This document shows positions 51,572 to 56,596 of a DNA stretch of 64,000 nucleotides, piece after piece. Both the position numbers and the translations under genes were made by a program. Within the stretch, counting starts at the first letter, position 1. The number at the start of each line of letters is the position of its first letter. The DNA lies in the NCBI GenBank assembly GCA_048885535.1, contig JBHLLO010000006.1, positions 4,314 through 68,313 on the forward strand, read 5' to 3'. Under the pieces are notes generated by a model. It was not told where the DNA came from. It did no database searches and saw nothing but the letters and a program-made list of their open reading frames with translations. The stretch comes from Candidatus Hermodarchaeota archaeon (GTDB lineage Archaea; Asgardarchaeota; Lokiarchaeia; Sigyniarchaeales; SOKP01).

Positions 51572-51793
51572 TTGCACAAACATGATAAGGAAATTTTAAA
51601 ATTGTCTAAGTTATGTGAGCATTGGGCAACTCACAACGATAACCATATGGAAAGTTTCGAAAAATGGAGAGCAATTGCTGAGGAAAAAGCTTTAATAAAT
51701 ATTGTAGAAAAACTCGATAAGGCGATTAATATGATGAAAAACTGTAATGACTATTTACTTGCTGCGAAAAAAGAATTAGATAAATTATTATAA
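51572..51793 (+). CDS. CooJ-like small nickel-binding helical protein
   Basis: HWATHNDNH fits H-W-x2-H-x3-H; N-terminal HKH; helical hairpin; 55 bp after cdhA. Confidence 0.68.
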   Translation: MHKHDKEILKLSKLCEHWATHNDNHMESFEKWRAIAEEKALINIVEKLDKAINMMKNCNDYLLAAKKELDKLL

Positions 51794-51800
51794 GAAAAGT

Positions 51801-53009
51801 TTAGAGAAACATATTTATTAAAGGTAGTATTTGTTCTCTGAAATAGTCCAGCTTCTCATACATCATTTCAGGATTTTCTGAAAGTATCCATAGATATACT
51901 GGAATTTTTAGTTCAGAGTAATCAAATAATTTTTCACCTTGAATAGTAAATCCATTTAATGGGAAATTTAGGGTAATAGATGATTCTCTGAGTAATCCAA
52001 TTGAGTTATGAAAATTTGACAAGGTCTGCATGATTAAAGCTGTATTATTTAATAAAGCCTCATCAATATTGGAATCATTGTAGTTTCCAAAAATCAACCC
52101 ATCCATCGAAATTAAACTTGAAGATTTTGCTTCAATTGTGTGAGAGAAATCTTCCAAAATGTTTTCAATAATTTCTGATGTGTCAGAAACCTTCTTAAGT
52201 GCTATACTAAACATTTGCATAATAGTTTCTTTTTGATAAATAGTAGTGTCTGAGAAATCTACAGAAAAATTTTCAAATTCACTTGTTATCTGATTAAATT
52301 TATTCTTAACTACATTTATATTATCCTGCCATTGGATTGTAGATCGAAAATCCTGATCACTTTTACTCAAAACAACTAAAATGGGGGGATATTCATTTAA
52401 ATCATTTAAAGCTTTAAGAACTTGGCGAAAGTAATTCGCAGATTCTGGAAATCTATCCGAATCGTAAGTATCTACGACATATAAAACTAGATCAACTTCA
52501 GTGAAGAATAATTCAGGTCTGTTAAAATATAATTTTTCTCTATATTGAACTTGACCACCCAAATCCCAAGATATAATTGGGTAACCAAAAAAGTCTAATC
52601 GCTCTCTCTTTACACCTCTAGTAGGTAATAAAGATTTAATTATTGAGAATTTATCTTGAAGAACTGCTAAAATAGATGTTTTTCCTCCATTATCAAGTCC
52701 TATCATCAATAGTTTTTTATGGGATTTCAATTGTTCTTTAATAGCTTTTACAACAACCTGTGCAATCTTTATCCATTTAATCAAAATAGAACTGGGAACT
52801 TCTTTAACATCTGGTGGATTGTCTAACGAAATTTTAGCTAAATCTCCAATATTTCTAATATTGTAGTCAGATAATGTATCTGAAGATACTTTATCAATAC
52901 CAATGAGAGTTTCAGGTTTGAAATTTAGTACATCTTCTAGTTCATTAATAATAACATTACTTTTAAAAAAGTCTTTTACTTTTAAATTTTTAATATCATT
53001 CTCTGACAT
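51801..53009 (-). CDS. Arf/Rag-like small GTPase with N-terminal HhH-like domain and C-terminal roadblock/longin-like domain
   Basis: G1 GLDNGGKT, G2 PTRG, G3 WDLGGQ, G4 SKSD. N-terminal LIGIDKVSSDTLSDYNIRNIGDLAK; C-terminal SSLISMDGLIFG. Confidence 0.82.
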   Translation of the reverse strand: MSENDIKNLKVKDFFKSNVIINELEDVLNFKPETLIGIDKVSSDTLSDYNIRNIGDLAKISLDNPPDVKEVPSSILIKWIKIAQVVVKAIKEQLKSHKKLLMIGLDNGGKTSILAVLQDKFSIIKSLLPTRGVKRERLDFFGYPIISWDLGGQVQYREKLYFNRPELFFTEVDLVLYVVDTYDSDRFPESANYFRQVLKALNDLNEYPPILVVLSKSDQDFRSTIQWQDNINVVKNKFNQITSEFENFSVDFSDTTIYQKETIMQMFSIALKKVSDTSEIIENILEDFSHTIEAKSSSLISMDGLIFGNYNDSNIDEALLNNTALIMQTLSNFHNSIGLLRESSITLNFPLNGFTIQGEKLFDYSELKIPVYLWILSENPEMMYEKLDYFREQILPLINMFL

Positions 53010-53216
53010 GGCACATCTAAGATTTACACAAATTCTCTTTTCTCTATAATATATTTGTATTTAATTAATTAAAAAGAGTTTTATAAAATATGAAAAAACT
53101 ACCTTATAAAACTTTATTTTTGTGAAAAAAACATAATTATTTATTCTTTTTGTAACATATAAAAATTAGAACTATTATTTAGGGTTTAAAAAAAAAATAA
53201 CTGGGTAAATCTGAAA

Positions 53217-54416
53217 TTGAGTGAAAGAGTACCAGAAAATATTGTAATTTGCATTGATACTTCAAGATCCATGTATCGATCAGATTATCCTCCGTATCCA
53301 AGTAGATTAGATATCAGTATTGAAGCAGCAAAAAAGATAATAAATGAGAGATTGATGGAGGATAATATGTCTTCTTTCGCCATAGTTATATTTTCTGATA
53401 AACCCAAAAAGGTTTTGGATTTCACTAGTGTAAAAGAATCCCTTTTCCAATCTTTAGGTACATTGAAATTTTCTGGAACATCAGCAATGGGAGACGCATT
53501 AGCATTTTCCATAAAATTGATTATTTCAGAGTTAAGAAAAATCGCGGCTAAAATCCCAAGAGTTCTTTTAATATCAGATGGAAAGTTTACAAAAACTTCT
53601 ATTGATCCTATAAAGATGGCTCGCCTTGCCCAAGGATTAAATATTAAAATTGATTGCTTCCGTTTAGGAGATTCATCTTCTCTTAATATACTAAAGCGAT
53701 TAAGTGATATTACAGGAGGACGATATTATTATAATAATGATTCAGATTCTCTCTTACAAGCAGCCTTTAATTTTGCTAATTCAAATATTAAAACTTATGG
53801 AGAAACATCTAAATCCCCCATTGAAAATCCTAGCTTTCTTAGAAAAATTGCTGCCGATCTATTAAGGGTTCAGGATCTCACAAAAGATCAAGAACAACGT
53901 TTACTGCAAATGAAAGGATTAGCTGATTATAAAAAGTGTTCAATCTGTTTTTCTGATAAAAATCCCTATACTAAAAGCTCCTTTTTTGTTAGTGGTCGTT
54001 ATTGTCCAAATTGTCAAACTCCATATCATATACATTGTTTAGCATCTTGGGCAGACTCCCAAAAGGATGGAAAAATGAGGAAAGCGGGGACAGTCAGATG
54101 TCCGCATTGTTTCTACCTATTAAAAATACCCATTGAAGTATCACAAATAAGAAAATTAACTTCTTTGGTAAAACCACGAATTCAAGCGAATTCGACTAAT
54201 CAGAAACCTGAAATTGCTGCAGCTGAATTGATTAACTTTGGAGATGTTGAAAAGGATGCGCTATTTGATTCGTGTTTAGTATGTAATCTTATATTTGAGC
54301 AAGATCAAAAACTTGTTAGATGTGAAAACTGTAAGACACTTTATCATCAAAACTGTTTTGAAGAATTAAATAATAGTCAATGCAAAAGCTGTGGTGTAAA
54401 ATTGCATTTATATTAA
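53217..54416 (+). CDS. vWA (Rpn10/Ssl1-like) protein with two C4HC3 RING/PHD-type zinc fingers
   Basis: IDTSRSM (MIDAS), DYPPYPSRL, LLISDG; C.IC...CPNC...H..C...CPHC; CLVC...CENC...HQNC...CKSC. Confidence 0.82.
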   Translation: MSERVPENIVICIDTSRSMYRSDYPPYPSRLDISIEAAKKIINERLMEDNMSSFAIVIFSDKPKKVLDFTSVKESLFQSLGTLKFSGTSAMGDALAFSIKLIISELRKIAAKIPRVLLISDGKFTKTSIDPIKMARLAQGLNIKIDCFRLGDSSSLNILKRLSDITGGRYYYNNDSDSLLQAAFNFANSNIKTYGETSKSPIENPSFLRKIAADLLRVQDLTKDQEQRLLQMKGLADYKKCSICFSDKNPYTKSSFFVSGRYCPNCQTPYHIHCLASWADSQKDGKMRKAGTVRCPHCFYLLKIPIEVSQIRKLTSLVKPRIQANSTNQKPEIAAAELINFGDVEKDALFDSCLVCNLIFEQDQKLVRCENCKTLYHQNCFEELNNSQCKSCGVKLHLY

Positions 54417-54466: not shown

Positions 54467-55351
54467 ATGACTATAGAGAATTATTATAATTATAAAAATT
54501 TCAAATTAGGATTCGGAAATTTCAATTTACCTCCAGTTCTAATTGGTACAATGTTTTATCAAGGACAATCCATTGTCGAGAGAAAAAACAGTCAAAATTT
54601 TAATAAGGAAAAAGCAAAAAAAAGAATTCAGAATCAACAAGATTTATCTAATCAATATAAAATTCCAAACCTTATTGAAATATCAGCAGACAACCCTGAC
54701 TCTATGATCAAATATCTTGAATTTTTCCTAGATAATTTTGAACCACCTTTTGTTTTGGGAGGTTCAATTGAAGCGAGAATTTCTGGTGTTGAATATCTAA
54801 TCGAAAGAGGTGTTAAGCCTGAGGAATTCATTTACAACACCATTTCAAATCTCAAGAATAACAAAGAATGTGACTTGATTAAAAATTATAAAATAACTAA
54901 CCTTGTTGTATTAATACTAGGCTCCAATAATATGACATCTACTCAGAGATTTAATTATTTAGTCGAAAAAAGCCAATCAGATAATTCAAGTTTACTTGAA
55001 GGAATAAGAAAGTTAGGTGTAGAAAGAATATGGATTGATGGCGGTTTGTTTGACATAGAGAGTCTAGCTCATATTCTAGAAACTCAACAATTAATAAGTA
55101 CATCTCTAAAATTACCTGTGGGAACTGCTCCTAATTTATTTTTATATAAATATTCATCTCCAAGATTAAATTTAAAATTTCATACTCGCTATCGAAGAGC
55201 TAGCATTATGTTTATTGCATCTTGGTTTTCTAATTTTATTTTTTATGGAGCAATTGAAGATGCTAAAGAATGTTTTGCATCTACTTACCAAGCTGTTGAA
55301 TTTAAAAAAATTTTAAAAGCTAATAATATCAAACTTTTAGATAAGTTTTAG
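54467..55351 (+). CDS. MtrH-like pterin-binding methyltransferase (divergent)
   Basis: PPVLIGTMFYQGQSIV resembles the MtrH N-terminal P.VL.GT.FY motif; IYNTI; LPVGTAP.N; FIFYGAIE. Confidence 0.72.
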   Translation: MTIENYYNYKNFKLGFGNFNLPPVLIGTMFYQGQSIVERKNSQNFNKEKAKKRIQNQQDLSNQYKIPNLIEISADNPDSMIKYLEFFLDNFEPPFVLGGSIEARISGVEYLIERGVKPEEFIYNTISNLKNNKECDLIKNYKITNLVVLILGSNNMTSTQRFNYLVEKSQSDNSSLLEGIRKLGVERIWIDGGLFDIESLAHILETQQLISTSLKLPVGTAPNLFLYKYSSPRLNLKFHTRYRRASIMFIASWFSNFIFYGAIEDAKECFASTYQAVEFKKILKANNIKLLDKF

Positions 55352-55441: not shown

Positions 55442-56596
55442 TTGGACATAGGAAAAATGTATGCAAATCAATATAAAGATGAATTAGAAATTGAAGCAAT
55501 TAAACTAATTGATCGGGCTGAAGAACTCATTGATAAAGGTAAAGGGAATGAAGCTATAAAATTATATGAAAAAGCAGCACAAATTTATCTAGATCTAGGA
55601 AGTTACTTTAAGTTGGATGAATTATTTATCCGTATAACTCGTGTAATTTCGCAGTTTAAAAATAATATTCAAGCAGTATACAGATTAAAATCAATAATTC
55701 GGAAAACGGAAGAATTAAAATTATACGAAATTTCCGCGAAGTTATTAGTTCAATTAGGAAATATTTCATTTCAAATGAATGATTGGGAAACTGCGGGTGA
55801 TAGCTGGAGTAAAGCATCTGAGTACTTTCTTGAAGCAGATCCAGAAGAATATAATAAATTAGCATCTATTCTCTTGTTAAAAGCAGGTCAAACTTATGAA
55901 CGTTCCCAGCTTACGAAGGATTTAGGCAAACGACTTATACTAAAAGCAGTTATGATAATTAACAAGTTTGATGAACTTTATCAACAAGAAGAAAAAAAAG
56001 CTCAAATATTAATAGAAAATAAAGAATTTGAAGCAGCTGCAGATAAATTTCATACTATATCTACATATTTTAGAAGATCCCTAGATAATATGGGAGAGCT
56101 ATTAGATGAAGCAGATTCTAAAGATACTATACTCAATGCAAAAGCAAGATTCATTCATTTTATTGCCGAATATCAAGTTTTGTCGGCAATCTGTTTAACA
56201 GCTTTAAATAATCCTGATTTTAAAGAAAAAGTTCAAACTCTTGGAAACGATTCAATAAATCTTTTTAAGGAATCTATTTCACTCCTTAAAGATTATTTAT
56301 TTCCTATAAGAACAGAATTTGATAGAGAGATAATCCTAAGAATTACATTTGATACTATGTTACTAACAATTATTCAAAAAATTATAAATGTGGAGATAGT
56401 TAACAGTAGAGAATATCTGTTTAACTCAATAGAAACAAATAATGCTTTAGTTGCAAAATTAAAAAAAAGCCCTTATTTTAAAATAACAAAAAAAGTTGAA
56501 AAAGCTGGTCTTACTGAAGCTCTAAATGATTTGTTAAAAGTTAACTTAGGTCATTTTGAAAAGATAAAAAACACTCTAATCTCTCACTTTTTATAA
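55442..56596 (+). CDS. TPR/alpha-SNAP-like alpha-solenoid protein
   Basis: Repeating helical pairs EAIKLYEKAAQIY, WETAGDSWSKASEYF and FEAAADKF. Confidence 0.65.
   Translation: MDIGKMYANQYKDELEIEAIKLIDRAEELIDKGKGNEAIKLYEKAAQIYLDLGSYFKLDELFIRITRVISQFKNNIQAVYRLKSIIRKTEELKLYEISAKLLVQLGNISFQMNDWETAGDSWSKASEYFLEADPEEYNKLASILLLKAGQTYERSQLTKDLGKRLILKAVMIINKFDELYQQEEKKAQILIENKEFEAAADKFHTISTYFRRSLDNMGELLDEADSKDTILNAKARFIHFIAEYQVLSAICLTALNNPDFKEKVQTLGNDSINLFKESISLLKDYLFPIRTEFDREIILRITFDTMLLTIIQKIINVEIVNSREYLFNSIETNNALVAKLKKSPYFKITKKVEKAGLTEALNDLLKVNLGHFEKIKNTLISHFL

Follow-up and report, generated by a model that had tools for sequence, protein, structure and literature searches.

The p44 subunit of transcription factor IIH (TFIIH; p44/Ssl1, GTF2H2) has an N-terminal von Willebrand factor A (vWA) domain followed by two zinc-binding modules within about 400 residues, the first a C4 finger and the last a C4C4 C1-like domain (PF07975). 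Rpn10/PSMD4, a part of the 19S particle, has a compact intracellular vWA domain with a degenerate metal-ion-dependent adhesion site (MIDAS) and carries ubiquitin-interacting motifs (UIMs), but no zinc fingers. In the plant proteins RGLG1 and RGLG2, a cytoplasmic vWA domain with a metal site is fused to a RING, and the vWA is the binding module of the ubiquitin ligase (E3) (PMC7155146). The archaeal ubiquitin systems studied so far have small single-RING E3s, and those from ubiquitin operons (Caldiarchaeum srfp and the Helarchaeial RING E3) are active in vitro (PMC5654768; bioRxiv 10.1101/2023.07.25.550441). Here we describe a gene in a 64,000-nucleotide stretch of DNA from an Asgard archaeon (contig JBHLLO010000006.1, positions 4,314 to 68,313; this whole stretch is called the window below), the product of which joins a vWA domain to two RING-type fingers. 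It belongs to a real, conserved, and previously undescribed family of cytoplasmic vWA-RING-RING proteins with a p44-like layout. No description of an Asgard vWA-RING protein was found in the searchable literature, and the Asgard ubiquitin papers treat small RING E3s and do not mention a vWA domain.

The family has the domain order and size of p44, but the PF07975 domain was not detected in it, its genes have no TFIIH-like context, and it occurs in one Asgard class only. Its vWA is of the same subclass as that of Rpn10 and has in common with it the start D-x-S-x-x-M...D-[YF]-x-P-[TN]-R-[LF]. The RGLG proteins are, by analogy, the closest model for the possible working mode of the vWA-RING-RING protein, although they have one C-terminal RING-HC and a copine-type vWA and are found only in eukaryotes; the comparison made here is one of layout. 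The bacterial BatA/BatB-type vWAs (PDB 4rck, 3ibs, and 4jdu) include the best profile match (4rck) and have a complete MIDAS with the SDG Asp, but they are membrane-anchored, have no RING fingers, and reach lower Pfam Ssl1 scores. The small operon-encoded RING E3s are single RINGs without a vWA; homologues of the present protein from sister orders sit in or beside such operons. Eukaryotic cpRAS-vWA proteins combine a small GTPase with a zinc finger and a vWA, and in some cases also with a RING (C-terminal in Naegleria) (PMC2430557), which parallels the pair of a GTPase gene and a vWA-RING gene found at the window locus. In those proteins, compared here by description only, the parts are fused in one chain, with a circularly permuted GTPase and a vWA of the Sec23/24-trunk type.

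Results

The gene and its domain layout

The features of the locus are listed in Table 1. In the genome from which the window comes (3.09 Mb, 92% complete), the gene has a 100% match at C6:57530-58726. Its TTG start is right, because the N-terminus MSERVPEN is shared, as MSERxPEN, with homologues of 397-401 aa. The protein collection contained 380 homologues of that length, and the mean column identity in an alignment of 34 representatives is 70%. The named homologues come from metagenome-assembled genomes (MAGs) of Lokiarchaeota or Promethearchaeota, and their annotation is only "VWA domain-containing protein" or "YegL". The open reading frame and its conservation are thus not due to chance. 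The vWA domain and the two C4HC3 fingers, which a sequence-only reading of this DNA had pointed out, were borne out by Pfam, the alignment, and AlphaFold. An N-terminal vWA, in which the MIDAS site is complete, is followed by a conserved helical linker and then by the two fingers, both of the C4HC3 cross-brace type. In the full-length AlphaFold2 model, the vWA has a predicted local distance difference test score (pLDDT) of about 90 and the fingers of 70-84, and the linker helices are predicted, with low pLDDT, at residues 205-218 and 223-232. A UIM in the linker helix was considered and ruled out; the window protein has no Pfam UIM match after the vWA, and the linker lacks the Ala-x3-Ser core.

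Table 1. Features of the vWA-RING-RING locus (positions are those of the window).
Feature	Position	Strand	Details	Basis
vWA-RING-RING protein gene, family clade A	53217..54416	+	399 aa, TTG start	single open reading frame
vWA domain	53235..53786	+	residues 7-190, Rossmann-like alpha/beta fold	Pfam, AlphaFold, Foldseek
MIDAS motif (predicted)	53256..53270	+	D14-x-S16-x-S18, completed by S89 (53481-53483) and D121 (53577-53579)
Helical linker	53823..53921	+	residues 203-235, FLRKIAADLLRVQDLTKDQEQRL	nearly invariant in the window's own taxonomic family
RING finger 1	53937..54110	+	residues 241-298, C4HC3, I243/W278/P296	alignment, model
RING finger 2	54273..54392	+	residues 353-392, C4HC3, RING-H2-like	Pfam, profile, Foldseek
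Rag-like GTPase, divergent partner gene	51801..53009	-		Pfam Gtr1_RagA and Arf, synteny
Shared intergenic region	53010..53216	.	AT-rich, 207 bp, several TATA-like runs	sequence read directly
MtrH-like methyltransferase gene	54467..55351	+	between the vWA-RING gene and the TPR gene	Pfam MtrH
SNAP-like tetratricopeptide repeat (TPR) protein, partner gene	55442..56596	+	384 aa	Pfam SNAP, synteny

The two fingers are RING-like

The ligands of finger 1 are C241-x2-C244-x18-C263-x2-C266-x4-H271-x2-C274-x20-C295-x2-C298, and those of finger 2 are C353-x2-C356-x12-C369-x2-C372-x4-H377-x2-C380-x8-C389-x2-C392. These C4HC3 patterns, together with the model and the profile matches, predict an eight-ligand cross-brace fold with two zinc sites in each finger. 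Finger 1 is the more divergent of the two in sequence, yet it is the invariant element of the family: its eight ligands and W278 are the same in 133 of 133 sequences, position 243 is always I or V, and P296 is kept in most. The ligands of finger 2 are intact in 115 of 132 members and degenerate in about 13%, and in a long subfamily of 612-724 aa this finger is replaced by another domain. Residues I243, W278, and P296 of finger 1 lie where canonical RINGs contact the ubiquitin-conjugating enzyme (E2), namely at a hydrophobic residue after C1, a Trp or other hydrophobic residue after C6, and a Pro after C7, while finger 2 has only V355 and L384 of this signature.

In Pfam, finger 2 (residues 351-392) matched Prok-RING_1 (PF14446; 28.0 bits vs a cut-off of 29.1), zf-RING_2, PHD (23.9 bits vs a cut-off of 24), and, weakly, PHD_NSD and C1_1; many homologues have a precomputed PF14446 match. 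The C-terminal family profile, however, separates RING-H2 ligases from PHD fingers by two to three orders of magnitude. For finger 2 it found the catalytic RING-H2 or RING-HC ligases Arkadia (5.6e-7) and RNF4 (9e-7), followed by RNF165, RLIM, RNF38, RNF13, RNF24, synoviolin, and AMFR. The matches to Arkadia, RNF4, RNF165, RLIM, RNF38, RNF13, and synoviolin lay between 6e-7 and 1e-5, whereas KMT2D and PHF proteins matched at 2e-4 to 1e-2. Finger 1 gave weak profile matches to SLX1, FANCL, and KMT2D. The C-terminal region was also modelled alone with a 43-sequence alignment, which gave a pLDDT of 84 overall and 86-94 for finger 1. Foldseek ranked a p44 chain first for this model (E = 7e-3, 133 columns), followed by RNF13, RNF38, Ark2C, and RNF12, the RING-H2 domains of which were solved with E2~Ub, and by RMR1 and APC11. 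The RING-H2 matches had TM-scores of 0.5-0.63, a root-mean-square deviation (RMSD) of 2.6-3.5 A, and probabilities of 0.94-1.0, compared with 0.2-0.57 for tandem PHDs. No match reached E <= 1e-3, as is expected for small domains, so only the ranking and the probabilities were used here. Judged from profile, model, and alignment, then, the fingers are best read as RINGs rather than PHDs, and the earlier suggestion of RING-type fingers stands, with putative E2-contact residues added to it.

The vWA domain and its relation to p44, Rpn10, and BatA

Residues 8-180 matched Pfam VWA_2 (53.4 bits) and VWA (51.0 bits). The Ssl1 model (PF04056) scored 34.9 bits, above its cut-off of 27 and below both vWA models, and Tfb4 scored 24.4 bits, below its cut-off of 27. 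The Ssl1 cut-off was reached by only one of 10 neighboring BatA-like vWAs, at 28 bits, compared with about 35 bits for the family. The vWA has the complete set of predicted metal-site residues. In clades A, U, and long, there is little or no variation at D14, S16, S18, and D121, and position 89, which is degenerate in clade B, is S or T. The SDG Asp of the MIDAS is kept in the family and in 4rck, but not in Rpn10 (VGSP) or p44 (FSSL). In the window's protein and its closest relative, P0002, residues 24-29 (53286-53303), directly after the MIDAS loop, contain a two-residue insertion (YPPYPSRL) in the otherwise fixed motif Y-x-P-N/S-R-L.

The N-terminal motif IDTSRSMYRSDYPPYPSRL was said in the sequence-only reading to resemble Rpn10 and p44. 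It does align with IDNSEWMINGDYIPTRF and VDNSEYMRNGDFLPTRL of Rpn10 and with VDGSRTMEDQDLKPNRL of p44, but it aligns equally with VDLSGSMAEEDMK..DRL of a bacterial BatA-like vWA, and the motif is therefore not specific to Rpn10 or p44. In the profile search of the PDB, the best match was the BatA-like 4rck (1.1e-11), ahead of Schizosaccharomyces pombe Rpn10 (2.7e-10), human Rpn10 (6e-8), p44 (1.2e-7), and BatB (1.4e-6). In the structural search with the full model, Foldseek gave 481 PDB matches at E <= 1e-3, of which all those listed, other than the p44 chains, were vWA domains. The top 16, all of them full-length p44/Ssl1 chains, had E = 3e-17 to 1e-12 and alignments of about 410 columns. The order of vWA, zinc module, and zinc module is that of p44, and the RMSD of 25-28 A for the superposition of the full-length chains arises because the domain arrangement differs. 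For the vWA alone, the TM-scores were 0.84-0.85 for p44/Ssl1 (RMSD 2.0-2.3 A), 0.77-0.82 for Rpn10, and 0.70 for BatB (RMSD 5.6 A).

A maximum-likelihood tree was calculated from 33 family vWAs, 54 other prokaryotic vWAs, Rpn10 of two species, p44, and the BatA-like 4rck, with the sequences drawn from the search alignments. Its backbone is unresolved, with no supported sister relation and with p44 on a long branch, and it supports neither side. The two Rpn10 sequences form a clade of their own in the polytomy, apart from the family, so that the tree shows no specific grouping with Rpn10. The refuting condition named in the sequence-only reading, a vWA that groups with generic prokaryotic vWAs and fingers that lack E2-binding features, has a divided outcome: the family vWA is not set apart from generic prokaryotic vWAs, but the fingers do have predicted E2-binding features. 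The TFIIH C1-like domain PF07975, which would correspond to the p44 layout with a terminal RING-like domain mentioned earlier, had no match at E <= 0.1 and was absent from the precomputed Pfam lists of 120 homologues, and p44 was not among the best 60 profile matches of the finger region. With HMMER, GRYCPNC of finger 1 was aligned to GYFCPQC of p44, and finger 2 to the C-terminal C4C4 module of p44, but these alignments scored 2.9 bits or negative, so the link in sequence is not significant and is a lead only.

The resemblance to p44 is thus real at the level of architecture and fold. The broader proposal that the protein is a relative of the Rpn10/p44 family has partial support, from the structural search of the PDB, in which p44/Ssl1 ranks first, and from the Pfam Ssl1 score above the cut-off. 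A specific tie does not follow, considering the BatA-like top profile match, the unresolved tree, the intact MIDAS, the lack of a UIM match, and the restriction of the family to one Asgard class. Membership in, or descent from, the Rpn10/p44 stock is not demonstrated and is an open lead.

Distribution and ubiquitin-system context

In a set of 400 genomes from the Asgard phylum, the family was counted as present where a match reached E <= 1e-20. Such a match was found in 160 genomes, namely the window's own and 159 of 160 others from its class, Lokiarchaeia, and in none of the 240 sampled Asgard genomes outside that class. With the double-finger profile, values within the class were <= 1e-43, apart from one outlier at 1e-22, and those outside it were >= 5.6e-11. 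Among the sampled Asgard genomes, the family is confined to Lokiarchaeia and near-universal there. Most genomes have two copies; the second paralogue in the window's genome is on C81 and is 37% identical.

In other orders of the class, a single homologue of about 394 aa adjoins ubiquitin-system genes. One locus (L092) has, in this order, UEV/RING, activating enzyme (E1; ThiF, 409 aa), E2 (UQ_con), JAB, and small ThiF (275 aa) genes and, after them, the vWA-2RING gene. The order is E2, JAB, ThiF, and vWA-2RING at L097 and JAB, ThiF, and vWA-2RING at L094, and at L096 a JAB gene lies 1 kb away. At two further metagenome loci, a small ThiF gene is the immediate divergent neighbor, and genes for a VTT membrane protein and an Arf-like GTPase are also present. 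The operon-linked homologues of the sister orders all have an Arf-like GTPase of 440-618 aa within a few kb (L092:12793-14370, L097:7264-9120, L137:109-1737, and L138:10260-11582), and a gene for a VTT-domain membrane protein is often directly downstream. Proximity to a GTPase therefore recurs in the family, with a different type of GTPase. In the family tree, clade B (the C81 type) is separate from the rest, and the operon-linked group and the long subfamily are sister to the clade A group. With the root assumed on the sister-order branch, the tree is compatible with a single ancestral gene, linked to a ubiquitin operon, and its duplication within the window's order.

Two E1/E2 sets are present in the window's genome. 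A canonical archaeal ubiquitin operon on C23 (C23:9115-15608), with its E1/E2 pair at C23:11759-13621, encodes two ubiquitin-like (Ubl) proteins ending in ...IPASTAG, an E1 (410 aa), an E2 (175 aa), a JAB protein (276 aa), and a multi-pass membrane RING protein of 376 aa with a C-terminal RING-like finger. Since this operon has a membrane-anchored RING of its own, the vWA-2RING protein would be an additional, larger candidate E3. The second set (C15:28075-33154) consists of an E2 that is 67% identical to the operon E2 of a sister order and an E1 of 524 aa. The two conserved halves of the latter are separated by an insertion of about 100 residues that is rich in charged residues.

Neighboring genes in the window's order

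The divergently transcribed neighbor encodes a Rag-like GTPase with an N-terminal extension, an Arf/Rag G domain, and a roadblock-like tail; in the PDB, the Asgard GTP-binding protein 8yl2 matches it best (1e-34). Downstream, beyond the MtrH-like gene, is the gene of the SNAP-like TPR protein. Of 18 orthologues of this helical-repeat protein, 16 matched Pfam SNAP (best 1.6e-9), with weak alpha-SNAP matches in the PDB. It is present in one copy in the genome and is itself uncharacterized. The window's own taxonomic family was surveyed at 80 species-level loci with 57-89% protein identity, where the gene is flanked by the Rag-like GTPase gene in 78 of 81, by MtrH in 80 of 83, and by the SNAP-like TPR gene in 72 of 74 loci, and where the wider region is also largely syntenic. 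In the other families of the order, with 36-42% protein identity, the GTPase gene and the TPR gene each adjoin in 9 of 11 loci, and the linkage survives in at least three different gene orders. All nine of those GTPases are reciprocal best matches of the window's GTPase. MtrH is found in none of these loci, and CdhA is gone as well. MtrH and CdhA were therefore rejected as functional partners, being syntenic only within the window's own family, and the MtrH gene is local synteny and probably not part of the module. In 72 loci of that family, a gene for a 73 aa DUF8180 protein (51572-51793) separates cdhA from the gene of the Rag-like GTPase, and it persists also where cdhA has moved away.

Discussion

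Proposed function

We think it somewhat better than an even chance that the vWA-RING-RING protein is a multidomain RING-type E3 ligase for ubiquitin or a ubiquitin-like protein, or an E3-like adaptor, tied to GTPase signaling. The vWA, with its complete MIDAS, would bind a substrate or other partner by a metal bridge to an acidic residue. An E2~Ub from one of the two E1/E2 sets of the genome would most likely dock on finger 1, at the Ile-243/Trp-278/Pro-296 surface. Finger 2, which is RING-H2-like and evolutionarily more plastic, may provide a second surface for E2, for a partner, or for dimerization. In the window's order, the paralogue probably acts with the Rag-like GTPase and the SNAP-like TPR protein as a GTPase-linked ubiquitylation module, in which the three products may form a complex. 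Plant RGLG1, a RING E3 that binds its substrate through a vWA, is a precedent (PMC7155146), and Asgard E1/E2/RING cascades are active in vitro with a different RING E3 (bioRxiv 10.1101/2023.07.25.550441; PMC5654768). The idea of an E3 ligase or ubiquitin-system adaptor, already raised in the sequence-only reading, is strengthened by the RING features predicted here and by the sister-order homologues beside ThiF, JAB, and E2 genes.

Several observations weigh against a ligase. Position 299 of finger 1 is F, Y, or L, not the Arg/Lys linchpin of highly active RINGs, and finger 2 has neither the Pro nor a linchpin (G393), although E3 activity does not require a linchpin after C8. In many proteins, among them p44 and the GATOR2 and HOPS subunits of eukaryotes, RING-like fingers are structural connectors. 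The link to ubiquitin operons comes from only seven loci of a sister subfamily, and carrying it over to clade A depends on the assumed rooting of the tree; in the window's own genome, there is no E1, E2, Ubl, or JAB gene near the gene. The geometry between the domains in the full-length model is unreliable (pTM 0.52). We also considered the co-occurrence of E2 genes as evidence and rejected it, because E2 is universal in the class (159 of 161 genomes) and its co-occurrence is thus uninformative.

The main rival explanation is a noncatalytic scaffold, in which the fingers are connectors, like the RING-like domains of p44 or of GATOR2/HOPS subunits, and the vWA is a docking platform around the Rag-like GTPase and the TPR protein, with no transfer of ubiquitin. 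The tight linkage with the GTPase and TPR genes, which resists rearrangement, fits this well, as do the lack of a ubiquitin-system gene nearby, the missing linchpins, and p44 as the best full-length structural match; the fingers of p44 bind p34 within TFIIH. Against a scaffold stand the conserved Ile/Trp(/Pro) surface on finger 1, the significant similarity of finger 2 to active RING-H2 ligases, and the sister-order homologues that adjoin ubiquitin-system genes, and we regard it as the less probable explanation, though one to be taken seriously. A PHD-type reader, with C4HC3 fingers that, in the manner of PHD or C1 domains, recognize nucleic acid, lipid, or modified peptide tails rather than E2, is very improbable. 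The spacing C-x2-C-x(12-18)-C-x2-C-x4-H-x2-C is indeed that of PHD fingers, and finger 2 has the weak Pfam PHD, PHD_NSD, and C1_1 matches and the KMT2D and PHF profile matches described above. However, both the profile search and the Foldseek probabilities prefer RING-H2 ligases, and a Trp four residues after C6 and a CPxC knuckle are RING traits.

The structural matches also raise the question of whether the protein is the true archaeal counterpart or ancestor of TFIIH p44/Ssl1, which would regulate an XPD-type helicase through its vWA and might pair with its own paralogue as p44 does with p34. The top 16 Foldseek matches, the best vWA TM-scores, the Pfam Ssl1 score, above a cut-off that only one of 10 BatA-like vWAs reaches, and the identical domain order all point in this direction, and the genome has an unlinked XPD-like helicase (C7:75910) and, like most others, two paralogues. 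We consider this improbable nonetheless, since the tree has no supported p44 grouping, a BatA-like vWA outscores p44 against the family profile, PF07975 was not detected, p44 is outside the top 60 matches of the finger region, and the MIDAS is intact in the family but not in p44. Furthermore, the linked genes are those of the GTPase and TPR proteins or of the ubiquitin system, not XPD, and the 240 Asgard genomes sampled outside the class all lack the family. An Rpn10-like ubiquitin receptor that docks on the proteasome or on a PAN/Cdc48 unfoldase through the vWA is an explanation to which we give scant credence. The second-best PDB profile match is S. pombe Rpn10, the vWA TM-scores are high, and the N-terminal motif is in common, but no UIM was detected, the C-terminal half consists of predicted RINGs instead of ubiquitin-binding helices, the MIDAS is intact, unlike that of Rpn10, there are no proteasome or lid genes nearby in the window or the family loci, and the vWA tree is unresolved.

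A wider, quite tentative scenario builds on the E3 ligase proposal. In it, the family would have arisen in Asgard archaea as a link between ubiquitin-type tagging and small-GTPase signaling. The gene of an ancestral vWA-RING-RING ligase, which adjoined an E1-like ThiF gene (in some lineages together with E2 and JAB genes) and lay close to Arf-like GTPases, would have been duplicated, and one copy would have become the dedicated partner of the Rag-like GTPase and the SNAP-like TPR protein, forming a GTPase-gated E3 module in the eukaryotic style. In a bolder extension, the same stock would have given rise to the eukaryotic TFIIH p44/p34 proteins with vWA and zinc fingers.

If the protein is an E3, it is a near-universal Lokiarchaeial ligase with a built-in binding domain, the MIDAS vWA, and so the family bears on the origin of substrate-selective, multidomain E3s in eukaryogenesis. 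The conserved pairing with the Rag-like GTPase and the SNAP-like protein defines a concrete three-protein module that can be tested. The family also offers a rare comparison of the p44/Rpn10-type intracellular vWA with a prokaryotic relative that still has zinc fingers. Even if it is only a scaffold, it marks an uncharacterized GTPase-associated complex in the closest archaeal relatives of eukaryotes.

Paralogues and divergent family members

The clade B paralogue of the window's genome (C81:8403-9581, locus L002) has 392 aa and a degenerate fourth MIDAS residue. Among the loci surveyed (L101-L113 and L115), the clade B gene adjoins the methionyl-tRNA synthetase gene in 13, from three families of the order, and within the window's own taxonomic family two roadblock/LC7-like genes lie about 5 kb upstream of it. 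Two tandem genes at C4:18257-21013 of the window's genome encode degenerate vWA-RING1 proteins (about 433 and 442 aa) that have lost the MIDAS, have a RING1 without the conserved Trp, and have a helical tail ending in a zinc ribbon. Similar proteins of 387-473 aa (P0182, P0190, P0202, P0205, and P0238) nest within the family in the vWA tree. The long subfamily, from sister orders (L011 and L126-L131), retains the vWA and RING1, and its RING2 is swapped for a large, Cys/Trp-rich C-terminal domain with no Pfam match.

Some of the MAGs with syntenic orthologues of 57-81% identity (L018, L019, L035, L073, and L078) are labelled Odin-, Hod-, Hermod-, or Thorarchaeota, and one protein, P0040, is labelled as from a Nanopelagicaceae bacterium. 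The Lokiarchaeial gene content seems at odds with such labels.

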